Below, piece by piece: positions 23,959 through 31,175 of a DNA stretch of 64,000 nt (its first letter is position 1; every line of letters begins with the position of its first letter). A model generated the notes under the pieces. It ran no database searches. It had not been told where the DNA came from and worked only from the letters and a program-made list of their open reading frames with translations. The translations under genes and the position numbers were made by a program. Source of the stretch: Kiritimatiellia bacterium (lineage in GTDB: Bacteria > Verrucomicrobiota > Kiritimatiellia > JAQICX01); the NCBI GenBank assembly GCA_027858345.1, contig JAQICX010000182.1:273-64272 (forward strand), read 5' to 3'.

Positions 23959-24164
23959 ATTTGTAAAACAAAGATTTGCTAAATCCAAAAAAGGAAGACA
24001 ACGAACATAATTTCATGAAACAAAAACACAACCGATCAATAACTTTTTCCACTATTACAAACCCTGAGCGAGGAGTACCCTATTGTTGAAAACTCAGCAA
24101 CAGGAACGCAGGTAACCTTTAAAAAACAGGAAAAAGGACTCGATATCGTAAACACCACAAAGAG

Positions 24165-24746
24165 ATGTCAAAATTAACCCAAAAGGCACCATTAACCACT
24201 CCCGAAAAAGATATCTGTGCCAGAGCAATTTTCTGGAATGATCCTATACTGCAAATCTACCGCAAGAACCAATTGCAATATGATGACCAATGGAGCTCTA
24301 AGGTGATTAGCCGATACAAAAATATATTAAAAAGTATTGCAGATGTGCCCAAAAGCGATGAAGCATCTTTTGAATATGGAAAAACTCTCCTAAACATCTT
24401 GATTCATAAGCTTGAACTGATGGATAAACTCGATTGTGCATATGCAGAAAAAAACACGCAGAAACTCACAGCCATATCGCAGCTTGCATCTGAAATCATT
24501 AGCGAACTTGAAGAATTTTCAACATCTTTCAGAGAATATCAGTATGAAAGATACAACCCGCAAGGGTTCGAAATTCTTCAAATTCGCATTGGGGGACTCA
24601 AAGAAAGGTTCAAAGAAGTTTCGCTACGAGTTGAGGAATTGCTTCATGGCAAAATTGACTCAATCCCAGAGCTACACGAAAAGGCAAGCTACAGGCTGGT
24701 CAACAAGCACTACCACGACCTGGCAACCGCCTCATATTTTGTTTGA
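24165..24746 (+). CDS. Hypothetical cytoplasmic helical protein
   Basis: 193 aa ORF, no recognisable motifs. Confidence 0.5.
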   Translation: MSKLTQKAPLTTPEKDICARAIFWNDPILQIYRKNQLQYDDQWSSKVISRYKNILKSIADVPKSDEASFEYGKTLLNILIHKLELMDKLDCAYAEKNTQKLTAISQLASEIISELEEFSTSFREYQYERYNPQGFEILQIRIGGLKERFKEVSLRVEELLHGKIDSIPELHEKASYRLVNKHYHDLATASYFV

Positions 24747-24949: not shown

Positions 24950-26314
24950 TCAATGCTCTAGAATTTTTCCTGTGGATGCATTGAGGTTTTCTATTGCAAG
25001 AATTCTAGACAATCGTTCTCTTGCCAAAGCTGACTCTGCTGCAACAGCGTCTGTTTGCACTTGATTCAACCGAGTCACAGAAACAAGACTGGCGTTATAC
25101 TCTTCCGTGACAACATTCTCTATCTCATCTGCCAACCTATATATTTCATCACTCTTCTGCAACGACAAATTCTGAATTTCAAGATTATCACTTGCTACTC
25201 TGACATCTGCAACAACATCAATCTGAGTTTTTCTGTACAAATCAGAAGCAGCTGAAGCATCTGCTTTTGTTGCTCGAACTTTCCCGTGTCTCATACCACC
25301 ATCAAAAAGATCCCATGATGCCACCACACCAACAAATGCTTCTGTATTTTCATCTTTGTTTAGGGCGTCAGTATCATCAACACCATTATATCCATAACGA
25401 CCTGTTGCAACTACAGTAGGCATATAACTACCTTTTTCTGCAGATACAGCTGCTTCAGCTTGATCCAATTCAAGCTCTTTCTGCAAAAGATCAGGACGAT
25501 GATCCACCGCATATAATATTTCTTTATCAAAATCCACTAAAAATTCTTTATACTCCTGCTCAAGATTTGAAACTGATTGAACATCGTTTGTAACAGTTCC
25601 ATCGTCAACCCCCATGAGTCTAGCCAAAGCAATTCTGGCTTGACGTTTAGACAATTCTGCAGCCAGTGCCTGGTTTTCAGAAGCAATTTTACGCATTTTA
25701 AAATTCATCACATCAGATCTTGATGCGGCACCTGCAAGATTTCTATCGCGAGTTTCTTTATAAAGCACCTCGTTCAACTTTGCAGTTTCAATTGCAATTC
25801 TCTGTTGTTCTCCGGCAAACAATACAGCCAAGTATGCTTGAGAAACTCCTTGAAGAAGAAGTCGCTGTGCATCAAGAGTAGAGTTTTCGCTTATTTCTTC
25901 TCCATATTTCGCAGCCATTATCCTATATTTACGGGATAAGCCATCAAATAGCAGCCATGAAACATCGACTCCTGCCTTATAATTGTCGTGAGAGCCTAAA
26001 GCTCCTTGGGAGCCGGGCACTTCTTCCATTCTGTAGGCTGAGCCATAGGCACTAACGGTAGGTAACCAAGCAGATTTTGCCTGTTGAGCAATCGCAGATG
26101 CAGCCTCAATACGTGTCATTGCTGCTTGCAGTCCAGGATTTCCGGACAAGGCAATTTCTTTTGCCTGTTTCAGTGTGAGAAGTCCATTAACAACCTCCCC
26201 TTTTTCTACAAAACTATCAGGTATACTTGCTGAGTCTTGAGCCGAAAGATTACTCACTGTCATAGGCAATGACAACCCAATTAAAATTATTATTATAGAT
26301 ATTTTATCTTTCAT
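24950..26314 (-). CDS. Outer-membrane efflux factor (TolC/OprM family) with its own signal peptide, currently in frame with the upstream RND gene
   Basis: C-terminal 454 aa of the 1476-aa ORF; begins MKDKISIIIILIGLSLPMTVSNLSAQ (signal peptide) and shows OMF coiled-coil/barrel repeats (…LFDGLSRKYRIMAAKY…, …LFDGGMRHGKVRATKADASAASDLY…). Confidence 0.75.
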   Translation of the reverse strand: MKDKISIIIILIGLSLPMTVSNLSAQDSASIPDSFVEKGEVVNGLLTLKQAKEIALSGNPGLQAAMTRIEAASAIAQQAKSAWLPTVSAYGSAYRMEEVPGSQGALGSHDNYKAGVDVSWLLFDGLSRKYRIMAAKYGEEISENSTLDAQRLLLQGVSQAYLAVLFAGEQQRIAIETAKLNEVLYKETRDRNLAGAASRSDVMNFKMRKIASENQALAAELSKRQARIALARLMGVDDGTVTNDVQSVSNLEQEYKEFLVDFDKEILYAVDHRPDLLQKELELDQAEAAVSAEKGSYMPTVVATGRYGYNGVDDTDALNKDENTEAFVGVVASWDLFDGGMRHGKVRATKADASAASDLYRKTQIDVVADVRVASDNLEIQNLSLQKSDEIYRLADEIENVVTEEYNASLVSVTRLNQVQTDAVAAESALARERLSRILAIENLNASTGKILEH

Positions 26315-29300
26315 AATTTTCTTTTTTCCTCTTCGTGTTCCAAAATCATAAAGTATAGGGACAACAAACAGTGTCAATATACCCGAAATCAAAATGCCAC
26401 CAGCGGAAGCAATACCAACACCATTTCTGGCTTCAGCGCCTATTCCTTGAGCCAAGCCCATTGGCAGCATGCCAAAGAAACCGGCAAATGTAATCATAAT
26501 AATTGGTCTCATCTGATCTCCAGCAGCAGTAATCATTGCTTTATGTACAGGCATTCCTTCTCTAAGATGTACATTGAGTTGTTCCATAATCAAAATTGCA
26601 TTGTTCACCACAATCCCAATAAGCATAACTATGCCCATAATCACAAACACAGATATACTCTCATTCATCAATAATAACGCCCAGAACACACCAATCAATC
26701 CAAGTGGAAGTGTAACTAAAATTAATGCTGGTTGTTTCCACGACTCCATAATCGCAGCCAGTGTCAAAATAACCAAAATGATAGCTAACAAACCTGCTTC
26801 ACCAAGACTTGCCTGGCTCTCTGCCATGTTTTCTGCATCGCCAGAAAAAATAATTTCATACCCAGGTGGTAAAAGCTGCTCTTTGTCAACATATGAAGCA
26901 ATAACCCCAATAGCTATTCCAAGAGGAAAATCAGGATTCAAATTACTTGTTAATTTTGTGACTCGCCTTTTGTCTCTACGAAGAATCTGCACAGGAGTGT
27001 TGACTTCCTCAAAATTCACAAACGATTCAACCGAAACTGGTTTGCCAGGAAGTCCCGGAACAGAGAATGATTTAACTTGATCTTTGCCTTGTATTTCTTC
27101 ATATTTAACAACAATATCATAATTTCTGTCACCTTGTTTAAATGTGCCAATCTCAATACCTTCAAGATTACCTCTCAATGACATTCCAAATGTAGTTGCA
27201 GAAATACCAAGATCACTGAAAATTGCTCTCTTAGGAAACATTTTGAGCTTATTCTTGCCCAGACGTACTGATGTGTCAACGTCGCTAAAGCCTGGATAAT
27301 TTTCACAATACTGCTTAATATTTAAAGATAAAGCATTAAGAACATCCAACTCATCACCAACAATATAAGCCTCAACAGGTGTGCTGATGCCTCCAATTAA
27401 CGATGGGATAAACGCCCCGGTTAAACAATCGGTTATACCCGTCAATCTGTTTCGAACAATCTCAAGCAAATCATAAATAGTTGCATCTCGTTCATCCCTT
27501 TCCAAAAATTTCAATTGAACTTGCCCAAGATATACACCTTCCGATGCCTGACCGGCAATACCTTGAATTTTGCCAACAGTCACTAGACTACTTGTAAGTC
27601 CTGGCAAATCATCAAACAGTTTTGCAATTTCCAGAACACGTCCAACGCTGTTGTCCAATGAATATGAGGTAGGAAACTCTAAACGAACTGTAATTGAACC
27701 CTTATCCAGATCAGGAAAGAAACTGCCACCAACAGCCTTTGCCGACTTCAAGGCAGACATAAACATTAAAACTACCGCAATAATAAAAAGTATTGCAAAA
27801 ATCTTTCTTTTTTCAAACAAACGCAATAGTTTTCTATATGCGCTGATAACCTTGTCAAGTCCGGCATTGAACTTGTTTTCAAAAAATGCAAGAACACCCT
27901 TGTTTTTTCGACTTGTTAAAAGCTTTGCACATAACATTGGTGTTAATGTGAAAGATATAAAGAGTGATACAAGAGTCATAATAAGCATTGTCAAAACCAA
28001 TGGTTTAAGAAACATTGCAACCATACCGCCCATCATAGCAATAGGAAGAAGCACAACACAATTTGTTCCAGCTGACGCTAAAACAGGAAGCCAGGAATCT
28101 GAGGCTCCAAGTCTCGCTGCCTCTTTTGGATCTTTACCCTGCGAAATGTGCTTGCTTATTGCCTCCATAACCACAATGGAATTGGTTACAAGAATACCCA
28201 CACTCATACCAATTGATATCAATGTTGACATATTCAATGTATAATTCATTAGCCCCATAAAGAAAAGACCAATAACAATCGTAAGTGGCATTGTTATACA
28301 TACAACAAACGTTGTTCTAATATTATAAAGAAACAAAAATAGAATCAATCCCGTGAGCACAACACCCATTGCAACATTTTCCCAAGCACTATCTACAGAT
28401 GCCTTGATAAACTTTCCCTCATCATTAACCCACTTAAGATCCATTCCTCCTGGTAATTGCTCCTTCAATTTTGAAAACTCTGACCGAACAGAATCAACAA
28501 CTTCAACAGCATTTGCATCCGCAAGCTTAACAATTTCAATTGCTATGCAAGATGCACCATCGAGAAAAGCCTTTTGCCTAATCTCTTCAGTTGTCATGAC
28601 AGCCTTGCCAACATCTTTCAAATATACCCGCTTACCATCAACATTTGCAACTTCCAGTTCATTAAAGTCTACAACTTCCAAAGGGTCAGCATCAAATTCA
28701 ACAGTATATTCAAAACCATTATCTTTGACTCTACCTGATGGAATCAAACCAATTGCTGAATTAATATTTTGAGCTACTATTCCAGAGGTCAGCCCTCTTG
28801 CAGCAAGTTTATCTCTATCTATAAGAATATGAACTTCACGCTTAGCACCACCAATCAGCGTACACTCTGCAACACCTGCAATGGACGACAACCGGTCTTT
28901 TAAAGTATTATCAGCATAATCATACAGATCGGCAATGGGCAAATCACCAGTCAATGCAAGCTTCACAACAGGAACGGCATTAACATCAAATTTTTCCACG
29001 ATAGGATCTTCAACCCCTGCAGGGAAATCACCAGCAATTAAACCAATTTTTTCTCGCACATCCATCGCTGCAATATCAATATCTGTACCATATTCAAACT
29101 CAAGAAACGTAAAGCACACATTTTCCATAGCTGTTGACTCAACATGTTTAATGCCATTGAGAGTCATCACTTTATCTTCAATTCTCTTTGCAACATCAGT
29201 CTCTATCTGTTCAGGACTTGCTCCGGGAAAAATTGTTTTAATCGTAATGATCGGTGCATCGATACTCGGAAGCATCTCCAAACCCATCTTACGATAAGTA

Positions 29301-29380
29301 TTGAACCCTAGTAAAACCAGGGCAATCAACAAACAAGACATCGCAATAGGACGCCTAATTGACGCATTTGATAAAAACAT
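26315..29380 (-). CDS. RND multidrug efflux transporter (AcrB/HAE1 family); lacks a stop codon and reads through an A6 tract into the OMF gene
   Basis: N-terminal 1022 aa of the 1476-aa ORF; 12-TM RND architecture, MFLSNASIRRPIAMSCLLIALVLLGF..., ends ...FGTRRGKKKI then MKDK. Confidence 0.85.
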
Positions 29381-29392
29381 AATTATAACTCC

Positions 29393-30550
29393 CTATTTAC
29401 GAACATTTATGCCTGTGTCATCATTAAGCAGAAATTGTCCTTCAACAATAACCAAATCACCAGTCTTAATAGATTCGTCAACGACTTCTGTCCAACCATT
29501 AAACTCCAAACCAGTTTTAATTGGTACAAGCTTTGCAACTTCACCATCTGCAACAAAAACTACATCACCTGTTTGTTTCTTAATGATTGCCTTAGTTGGA
29601 ACCCCAATACCCTTGGATTTACCAAGTTGAATAACACCACTAATCAAACTTCCTGGGGCAACCAGTTCGCTATTTACCAAATCTGCTTTAACTTCAAAAA
29701 CCCTTAACATATTATCAATTGACGGAGCTTTATAGCTAAGCACATAGTCTCCCTCCTGCTTCTCATTTGAAAAAATCATTAACTTTGTTGTTCCTGCATT
29801 AATATCTGAATAATACTGAGATGGAATATAGAAAGATGCTTCAAGCTTGTTTACACTCTCAATTTTGAACACAGCCTTACCTGTCGTGCCCATATCTCCA
29901 ACATAATAAAATGTTTCAGACACAACTCCGCTGATTGGTGCCTTCACAACAGTATCGGACAAGTTCTTTTTTGCAATTTCCAGTGCGGCTGCTGCCTGAG
30001 AAACTTGCTCTTTTGAGAGCTGAATCAATGTATCTGCATGTTTTACAGATGCTTTGGCCTGCAGCATACCTGATTCCAACTTTTCAATTGTATCCAAGGT
30101 TCCAACCTGCTTTTCATCATACAATTTTTTTTGTCGTTTGTAATCAATTTCAGCTTTATTTAAAACAGCTTCAGCCTGTTCTTTTAAAGCCTCTTTTTCA
30201 TTCACAGCACATTTTGCAACCGCAAGTTCCTGTTTAGCAAGAATCATAGCCTGCTCAGTTTTTATTGCATCAACTGCAAACAACTTAGTTTTATCTTTTT
30301 CAACAGCATCGCCCTCGTTCACAAAAAGCTCTGTAATCGTTCCGGATATACGTGGCGTAACCATCGCAACATCTTTGGCCTCAACCGAACCTTCAACACT
30401 AATGTTATCCTCAAAATCCATGATTTCTCCATTCGCAACAATAACAGGAATTGACTTCTTCTCAACTTCTTTAGCCACTTCTTTTTTTCCGCACCCAACA
30501 AATGCCAATAAAACTGCCAATAACAAAAATTTAATTATTTTACTCATCAT
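29393..30550 (-). CDS. RND efflux membrane fusion protein (periplasmic adaptor, HlyD/AcrA family), lipoprotein
   Basis: 385 aa; lipobox LAFVGCG; coiled-coil hairpin and beta-barrel domains. Confidence 0.85.
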   Translation of the reverse strand: MMSKIIKFLLLAVLLAFVGCGKKEVAKEVEKKSIPVIVANGEIMDFEDNISVEGSVEAKDVAMVTPRISGTITELFVNEGDAVEKDKTKLFAVDAIKTEQAMILAKQELAVAKCAVNEKEALKEQAEAVLNKAEIDYKRQKKLYDEKQVGTLDTIEKLESGMLQAKASVKHADTLIQLSKEQVSQAAAALEIAKKNLSDTVVKAPISGVVSETFYYVGDMGTTGKAVFKIESVNKLEASFYIPSQYYSDINAGTTKLMIFSNEKQEGDYVLSYKAPSIDNMLRVFEVKADLVNSELVAPGSLISGVIQLGKSKGIGVPTKAIIKKQTGDVVFVADGEVAKLVPIKTGLEFNGWTEVVDESIKTGDLVIVEGQFLLNDDTGINVRK

Positions 30551-30563
30551 TCTTATCTCTCTT

Positions 30564-31175
30564 TTAATTATTATCTTTTATTCCTAAATTAATACTATTT
30601 ACTAAAACATCTATAACCTCATCTGAACCAGGACTATTCTCAGGATTACAAATTAACTCCATAATCAATTCCATAATAATCAGACCAATCATCCATGCAC
30701 GAGTTTCAGGGTTGTCCACAATCCACCCCTCTTTCTCTATACCATCTTTAAAAAGTGACAAAAATACCGCTCGCTTTCGATCAATATGCTGTTTGCGTTG
30801 CTCTGATAAAACAGGAAACTCCTTTTCAGCCCCAACAAATAACAACAACCAGCTCCTGTGAGTCTCTGCAAATTCAAAATGAGCTCGAAGATATTTGATC
30901 AACCTTTCCCTTGCCGACAAACTGGCATCTTCAAGAATAGGATCAAAAAATGCACTCGCCCTTTTGTTTATATCTTCAATTATAGTTAAAACCAAATCTT
31001 CCTTAGATGAAAAATAGTTATATAAAGTTCCCTTGGAAACCCCCGCTTCTTCTGCAATATCAGACATTTTCATCTCATATAATGTAGTCCCCGAAATCAG
31101 CCGGCATGTCGCAGCACAAATCTCGCTGCGCATCATCTCTTCAACTTTGCTCTTCTTCTTGTCTATTAAATTCAT
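30564..31175 (-). CDS. TetR/AcrR-family transcriptional regulator (likely efflux-operon repressor)
   Basis: 203 aa; N-terminal HTH (…MSDIAEEAGVSKGTLYNYFSSKEDL…). Confidence 0.85.
   Translation of the reverse strand: MNLIDKKKSKVEEMMRSEICAATCRLISGTTLYEMKMSDIAEEAGVSKGTLYNYFSSKEDLVLTIIEDINKRASAFFDPILEDASLSARERLIKYLRAHFEFAETHRSWLLLFVGAEKEFPVLSEQRKQHIDRKRAVFLSLFKDGIEKEGWIVDNPETRAWMIGLIIMELIMELICNPENSPGSDEVIDVLVNSINLGIKDNN

Follow-up and report, generated by a model that had tools for sequence, protein, structure and literature searches.

In the textbook view, tripartite efflux pumps are built of three separate proteins, with post-translational control of their stoichiometry and assembly, and the question raised by the locus described here is how a single open reading frame (ORF) can come to encode two of them. 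The ORF lies on the minus strand of a 64,000-nucleotide stretch of contig JAQICX010000182.1 from a Kiritimatiellia bacterium (the whole 64-kb stretch is hereafter the window) and joins a permease that belongs to the resistance-nodulation-division, or RND, superfamily to a TolC-like outer-membrane factor (OMF). An earlier note on this DNA had left three explanations standing, namely a homopolymer miscall at the junction, a slippage-prone regulatory site, or a genuine covalent fusion that would be topologically remarkable. Comparison with orthologous genes demonstrates that an RND gene and an OMF gene have been merged in frame over long evolutionary time, in a fusion that is real and conserved and in which both halves are under purifying selection. 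The most likely mechanism, which we favour with good though not full confidence, is that of a pump-channel polyprotein processed by signal peptidase, the mature products of which would most likely be two separate proteins. The features of the gene on which the argument turns are given below, with the basis of each in brackets.

24950..29380, minus strand: single ORF of 1476 amino acids (aa) comprising an RND permease, an internal signal peptide and an OMF (ORF list, translation, Pfam)
26336..29380, minus strand: RND permease part, residues 1-1015, with 12 transmembrane (TM) helices and ending in TM12 (ACR_tran match, alignment with MdtB and AcrB, AlphaFold2 (AF2) model)
26303..26335, minus strand: basic cytoplasmic linker, R1016-K1026 (RRGKKKIMKDK), the n-region of the putative internal signal peptide (junction comparison)
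26321..26327, minus strand: heptamer A_AAA_AAG, in frame as GG[A AAA AAG], holding the A6 run at 26322-26327 in plus-strand coordinates
26312..26314, minus strand: ATG inside the ORF (M1023), at which the OMF gene ancestrally started (junction DNA comparison)
26255..26302, minus strand: hydrophobic h-region and putative 13th membrane pass, I1027-V1042, ISIIIILIGLSLPMTV (hydropathy, AF2)
26240..26254, minus strand: c-region SNLSA, behind which (after A1047) signal peptidase I is predicted to cut, LSA/QDS, the slash marking the cut here and below (-3/-1 rule satisfied)
24953..26239, minus strand: predicted mature OMF, Q1048-H1476, 429 aa (two OEP repeats)

The translation of 24950..29380 runs through without a stop to a terminal TGA at 24950-24952. 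The Pfam family ACR_tran (PF00873) matches residues 4-1011 (702 bits; gathering score 28), an alignment that takes in positions 2-1017 of the 1021-position profile, and two repeats of OEP (PF02321) follow from residue 1070 on (178.7 bits; threshold 22). The single 1476-aa ORF of the earlier note is thus borne out by the ORF list, by the stop-free translation and by both domains. A protein identical to it (P0001) is present in public data from a Kiritimatiellae metagenome-assembled genome (MAG), annotated merely as 'efflux RND transporter permease subunit'. At the nucleotide level, the minus-strand junction reads GGA AAA AAG AAA ATT ATG AAA GAT AAA, in exact agreement with the earlier reading, as is the plus-strand T6 at 26322-26327. 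One more A in the run would indeed give AAA AAA GAA AAT TAT GAA AGA TAA, with a stop overlapping the OMF start, and one A fewer, a point absent from the earlier note, would give AAA AGA AAA TTA TGA, the classic ATGA overlap of stop and start. Both neighbouring frames therefore close at once at the junction, which is the chief argument for a sequencing or assembly error, with a true A7 (or A5) and two separate, translationally coupled genes; homopolymers are also error-prone, and RND and OMF genes are adjacent in unfused relatives.

Orthologs speak decisively against such an error. A homology search of 5.8 billion proteins yielded full-length fused relatives of 1470-1499 aa, with 89, 84, 79, 77, 54, 54 and 48% identity. 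A search centred on the junction returned fragments rather than the full-length fused relatives of the first search, and an exhaustive profile search of 1.84 billion representatives was used instead; its best 150 hits included at least 25 more fused clusters, spread over widely differing RND subfamilies. The fused orthologs represent at least 8 lineages, with DNA from 13 contigs of independent samples (ENA, JGI, NCBI and Logan; different assemblers), and several exact fused proteins recur in two to six independent contigs. Their loci share the same context, in which a TetR regulator gene and a gene for a membrane fusion protein (MFP) precede the fusion. Although L001 and L004-6 retain GGA AAA AAG, so that the heptamer is kept in three of the five low-GC lineages, the junction of L002/3 and L007/8 is GGA AAG TTG/TTA AAG AAA ATG, with neither an A6 run nor a slippery heptamer, and is nonetheless fused in frame. 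The position of the internal ATG is occupied by GTG in L001, and each of the five low-GC lineages still has ATG or GTG where the OMF gene once began. The high-GC members L009/10, L011 and L012 (GC 0.64-0.69) lack an A-tract, and their linkers are free of in-frame ATG codons; nor does a usable GTG or TTG start precede the hydrophobic segment in L009 and L011. In the three high-GC lineages the first off-frame stops are 39-267 codons away, leaving none nearby in any frame. The same fused gene occurs without an A-tract in L015, a Verrucomicrobiota MAG in GTDB (GC 0.69), with a junction peptide identical to that of L009. Among the orthologs, linker length varies by whole codons only.

The selective regime of the gene adds a further argument. 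In a codon-level comparison of the five low-GC lineages, the ratio of nonsynonymous to synonymous substitution (dN/dS) is 0.06-0.09 for the RND part and 0.07-0.14 for the OMF part (residues 1067-1476), as opposed to 0.15-0.5 for the linker and signal segment, and the 19 residues after the predicted cleavage site (1048-1066) evolve roughly neutrally. Since synonymous sites are near saturation (synonymous difference pS 0.4-0.7), the frame has been kept over a long divergence. Within the fused clade, divergence is much quicker in the OMF half, which has 39-41% identity to the high-GC fused relatives where the RND half has 62%. With both halves under purifying selection as one frame, and with the in-frame junction recurring where no homopolymer exists, the homopolymer miscall is refuted and an error of this kind can scarcely be entertained. 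It had been held that orthologs all carrying separate genes, without the tract, would argue against a conserved fusion; the orthologs proved to be fused.

The other explanation that turns on the A6 run is programmed -1 frameshifting of the dnaX type, or slippage, at A_AAA_AAG, which would set the ratio of a stand-alone RND protein, ending at a TAA six codons on, to the fused precursor. In common with a dnaX-type site, the junction has this very heptamer, correctly framed, with a -1 stop close by, and the retention of the heptamer in part of the low-GC group is in keeping with this idea. Unlike such a site, it has neither a stimulatory stem-loop, the downstream 87 nucleotides (nt) being matched in folding by 28 of 200 shuffled sequences (z = -1.17), nor a well-spaced Shine-Dalgarno (SD)-like element, as the sole candidate, GAGGA, abuts or overlaps the heptamer and is not about 10 nt upstream. 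The heptamer is replaced by AAG TTG/TTA AAG in L002/3 and L007/8 and is missing from all high-GC fused genes, while in this genome it is ubiquitous, with 71 occurrences in the window, including others in the fused gene and in the MFP gene. Moreover, A6 is too short for efficient transcriptional slippage. Heptamer frequency, downstream folding and the lack of conservation all being against it, programmed frameshifting was rejected as very improbable, and the slippage-prone regulatory site of the earlier note is left without support. As an observation on composition, the 71 copies of AAAAAAG in the window compare with 48 +/- 6.7 expected from dinucleotide-preserving shuffles, none of 100 shuffles reaching 71, and lysine-rich, A-rich coding is general in this genome of GC 0.38.

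The history of the fusion was followed in neighbour-joining trees, that of the OMF part being drawn from the 60 closest sequences with capped distances; an earlier OMF tree had been discarded for invalid distances between very divergent pairs and a clade produced by long-branch artefact. Six low-GC and four high-GC fused sequences form one all-fused clade in the OMF tree (119 of 200 bootstraps, each subgroup 100%), and the grouping of low-GC with high-GC fused sequences is recovered in the RND tree as well (84/100). Fusion seems to have arisen at least a second time, as the RND tree puts the fused protein P0025 at another position. The closest unfused OMF, P0124 (34% identity), is encoded in a TetR-MFP-RND-OMF operon in which the TGA of the RND gene, 8 nt and the ATG of the OMF gene follow one another, and a Syntrophales relative has a gap of 35 nt between the RND and OMF genes. 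The P0124 operon shows the ancestral layout, in which loss of the stop would yield a fusion. P0009, the unfused RND protein most closely related, is encoded at L014, where a divergently transcribed OMF gene (559 aa) lies upstream of TetR-MFP-RND, not downstream; the position of the OMF gene is thus not fixed among the nearest unfused relatives.

If the gene is a true fusion, how could an outer-membrane protein be delivered from the end of an inner-membrane pump? The answer appears to lie in the junction, where the OMF part does keep its own signal peptide, as had been proposed: MKDK is followed by ISIIIILIGLSLPMTV and then by SNLSA/Q, with no cysteine. The wider basic stretch DFGTRRGKKKIMKDK carries a net charge of +5, and the corresponding linkers carry +1 to +8 in the 8 fused lineages and -2 to +9 over all 36 fused proteins. 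The best windows of the h-region have a mean Kyte-Doolittle hydropathy of 2.68 over 13 residues and 3.03 over 12, and a 12-mer of hydropathy 2.2-3.4 is found between the RND end and the OMF start in 36 of the 36 fused proteins retrieved. All 8 lineages share the basic stretch, the hydrophobic segment, a -3/-1 site and the lack of cysteine; the site is mostly LxA/Q, the window, L001, L002, L004, L007 and L011 agreeing in the position of an LxA/Q or LxG/Q and L012 having ARA/G. Set beside N-terminal signal peptides from 114 unfused OMFs, the fused segments show a median hydropathy of 2.70 versus 2.50, the same median uncharged run of 17 residues (the window's own run is also 17) and a distance to the OMF core of 23 versus 20 residues, whereas control windows inside OMF bodies have a median hydropathy of 0.91. 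By these measures the internal segments are indistinguishable from the N-terminal signal peptides of unfused OMFs. The AF2 model places a helix at 1026-1037, with a predicted local distance difference test (pLDDT) score below 50 and unpacked on the RND body, which as weak evidence would fit a detachable signal segment.

The cytoplasmic location of the AcrB C-terminus after TM12, established by structures, suggests how the polyprotein would be handled. The end of an AcrB-like TM12 would be on the correct side of the membrane, so a signal peptide retained there could cross the membrane again and be cleaved. The ribosome would make one 1476-aa precursor, the RND part of which would insert with the usual 12 helices and leave the end of the chain in the cytoplasm. 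The basic linker would remain inside and the former OMF signal peptide would form a 13th pass, N-in/C-out, which would initiate export of the 429-aa OMF domain by the Sec route. A cut after L-S-A1047 by signal peptidase I would follow, the freed OMF would assemble in the outer membrane and the RND subunit would retain a short extra C-terminal helix. The outcome would be obligatory 1:1 synthesis of two trimer-forming partners from one message at one membrane site. The genuine covalent fusion of the earlier note thus stands at the level of the gene and its translation but need not be topologically remarkable, since the cytoplasmic C-terminus of TM12 lets a signal peptide insert without paradox. 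Cleavage is made probable by the conserved c-region, the strong purifying selection on the OMF and the geometry of the tether. In the fused proteins, about 2-20 residues (at most about 70 Å) separate the membrane segment from the first conserved OMF helix, while the N-terminal region of the OMF is well over 100 Å from the inner membrane in assembled AcrAB-TolC and MexAB-OprM pumps, and by this estimate the tether is far too short for that position. A semi-tryptic peptide QDSASIPDSFVEK, possibly with pyroglutamate, is predicted at the N-terminus of a mature OMF, and an uncut precursor would be expected to give the junction-spanning peptide ISIIIILIGLSLPMTVSNLSAQDSASIPDSFVEK after tryptic cleavage at K1026.

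Several points weigh against this account of a cleaved polyprotein. The cleavage of the precursor is predicted from sequence rules only, the -3 residue is a Leu, which is allowed though not most favoured, and the best site in the high-GC P0006 lineage is less clear (GLA/A or GVT/Q). The AF2 model of the RND part with the segment, given its pLDDT below 50 there, neither supports nor refutes a packed 13th helix. The internal ATG, with a distant GAGGA, could allow some OMF to be made independently in the window's lineage, and a good many distant fused proteins, known as singletons from one contig each, may be recent events or errors, so that generality beyond the window's clade is weaker. We infer the membrane insertion of the segment, the cleavage and its exact site, and any benefit of stoichiometry or co-localisation.

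These reservations bear on three alternatives, all of which accept the fusion. In one, the working OMF would come mainly from independent initiation at M1023 in the low-GC lineage and the fusion would be a tolerated by-product. The ATG or GTG kept in all five low-GC lineages, the GAGGA 12 nt upstream of it and the use of SD sequences by this organism, evident from the GGGAG 9 nt before the start of the fused gene, are in its favour. Ribosomes on the RND part cannot stop, however, and would make the fused chain regardless; the GAGGA forms codons of the conserved R-R-G at a spacing longer than optimal, and in high-GC members of the clade, where no start codon precedes the hydrophobic segment, the OMF is still under selection. 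This alternative is improbable as the main source, although starts at M1023 may contribute some OMF in low-GC lineages. A cut by another protease, or at a site other than after A1047, is slightly less probable again. The exact site follows from a rule, TVS/N and SAS/I are alternative -3/-1 candidates, and a few distant fused proteins have lipoboxes (LSGC, LAGC, LASC) that imply Lgt/Lsp processing there; yet the window has no cysteine at its junction, and LxA/Q is the sole motif whose position is conserved across lineages. That the fusion stays uncleaved, with one chain spanning both membranes or with the OMF tethered to the pump, is very doubtful. Nothing in the sequence forbids tethering, and an h-region of 16-17 uncharged residues, predicted by AF2 as a helix, could serve as an anchor, but the c-region is conserved with small -3/-1 residues, the tether would have to bridge the distance given above, and strong purifying selection on the OMF implies a working outer-membrane channel. 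Signal peptidase cleavage after A1047 is preferred to all three.

Among the distant fused proteins, P0191, P0296, P0333 and P0303, each known from a single contig, carry a lipobox (LSGC, LAGC, LASC, LNAC) in place of the AxA site after the internal hydrophobic segment. Such proteins would require Lgt and Lsp to act on an internal signal peptide.

The two halves of the polyprotein are ordinary members of their superfamilies, with some peculiarities. The RND part aligns end to end with MdtB 16-1020 (E = 8e-105) and AcrB 3-1036, TM12 included, and its nearest solved structure is MdtB (9lyq_B). The AF2 model of the RND part with the segment has a mean pLDDT of 77 and a predicted TM-score (pTM) of 0.70, and its last TM helix spans 983-1015. 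The cut-offs of the NCBIfam RND subfamily and equivalog models (RND_permease_2, MdtB, AcrB) are not reached, the best being RND_permease_2 with 645.7 bits against 1250, and the RND part is therefore a divergent subfamily, orthologous to no named pump. The canonical proton-relay charges of the HAE1 family are missing: AcrB D407-D408 in TM4 correspond to T399-N400 (28181-28186, minus strand) and AcrB K940 in TM10 to N926 (26603-26605, minus strand), as is seen where LVTNSIVVMEA stands for VVDDAIVVIEN of MdtB and IVVNNAILIME for LSAKNAILIVE of AcrB. Equivalents of AcrB R971 and T978 are retained as R958 and T964. The same charges are missing from all 35 aligned relatives, and N400, S401, N926 and N927 are invariant in all 36 aligned fused and unfused sequences (Planctomycetes-Verrucomicrobia-Chlamydiae (PVC) group, Planctomycetota, Hydrogenedentota and others). 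Since the charges are absent throughout, the whole RND subfamily of the fused gene may use another relay or another coupling ion.

The nearest solved structures to the OMF part are OprJ, OprN and OprM, all of which could be aligned. The OMF part likewise does not reach the NCBIfam cut-offs for TolC (122 bits against 225) or NodT (94 against 210), and a lipobox cysteine of the NodT/OprM type was sought without success, as the members of the window's clade all lack a Cys within 60 residues of the junction. In this regard the OMF part resembles TolC and is predicted not to be lipidated.

The fused gene closes an efflux operon of the TetR-MFP-RND-OMF type, the first two genes of which are as follows.

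30564..31175, minus strand: TetR-family regulator, first gene of the operon (Pfam TetR_N, 51 bits)
29393..30550, minus strand: MFP, the periplasmic adaptor, a predicted lipoprotein (NCBIfam RND_mfp, 150 bits with a cut-off of 94.9; Pfam HlyD_D23)

The TetR gene is likewise found ahead of the MFP gene in the orthologous loci L001, L002 and L004-L009. The N-terminus of the MFP, MMSKIIKFLLLAVLLAFVGC, has a lipobox (FVGC), and a gap of 12 nt separates the MFP gene from the fused gene. An internal promoter or terminator at the junction was considered and rejected, as a consensus scan gave counts at chance level (promoter-like, 25 against 17.8 +/- 4.4; terminator-like, 7 against 5.4 +/- 2.4). Beside the operon, and convergent to it, the related locus L007 has a gene of 623 aa for glycoside hydrolase family 20 (GH20), of which a remnant is present in the window at 24004-24746 on the plus strand. 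As tblastn of the L007 protein matches only residues 3-50, at 24004-24147, and residues 408-623, at 24090-24743 in a different frame, the remnant reflects a deletion, with the catalytic domain lost and a 193-aa ORF with the C-terminal domain remaining.

The locus is organised as a variant of the canonical tripartite RND operon, as typified by mexR/mexA-mexB-oprM of Pseudomonas aeruginosa and MdtABC of Escherichia coli, with the same parts in the same order: regulator, lipoprotein adaptor, 12-TM RND permease and channel of the TolC/OprM type. In those operons, however, RND and OMF are separate genes with their own starts and the signal peptide is at the OMF N-terminus, whereas in the window a single ORF covers both and the signal peptide lies within it; the window's OMF also differs from OprM in having no lipobox, and its RND part in having no D407/D408/K940 charges. 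The nearest mechanistic precedent known to us is the FbcH cytochrome b-c1 polyprotein of Bradyrhizobium japonicum, which is said, in work by Thony-Meyer and others dating from 1989-1991, to be cleaved at an internal signal peptide into two subunits at 1:1. FbcH too consists of a polytopic inner-membrane protein followed by a partner with an internal signal sequence, a layout matched in the window by an AcrB-like TM12 end, cytoplasmic in established structures, and then an n-h-c signal sequence. The families are unrelated, both FbcH products stay at the inner membrane and their cleavage is demonstrated, whereas here the OMF must reach the outer membrane and its cleavage is predicted. Covalent fusions of efflux components have also been engineered for structural work (e.g. 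of the AcrA-AcrB type), in which the partners are likewise linked and their stoichiometry enforced. Those constructs are artificial, join inner-membrane and periplasmic partners and are left uncleaved, while the fusion in the window is natural, joins inner- and outer-membrane partners and has kept a cleavage signal. No description of a natural RND-OMF fusion was found in the literature searched, which included TC-number fusions, internal signal peptides and efflux reviews, although this is not proof of absence.

Taken in its full breadth, the view we somewhat favour is that of a natural polyprotein, in which the OMF is a C-terminal extension of a 12-TM pump, exported by means of an internal signal peptide, which is turned into a 13th helix, and freed by signal peptidase; it would have been long kept in a PVC-group clade, would have arisen more than once elsewhere, and would hard-wire where the two partners are made as well as their 1:1 ratio. 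Pipelines label such genes just 'RND permease', and the OMFs of these genomes thus go uncounted. If the proposal is true, an outer-membrane channel would be deliverable by way of the C-terminus of a polytopic inner-membrane protein, and the pump would be left with an extra C-terminal helix. The gene would then provide a natural test case for the recognition of internal signal peptides, for the hand-over between SecA and YidC and for the action of bacterial signal peptidase, as well as a 1:1 construct, ready-made, with which the structure and assembly of these pumps could be studied.

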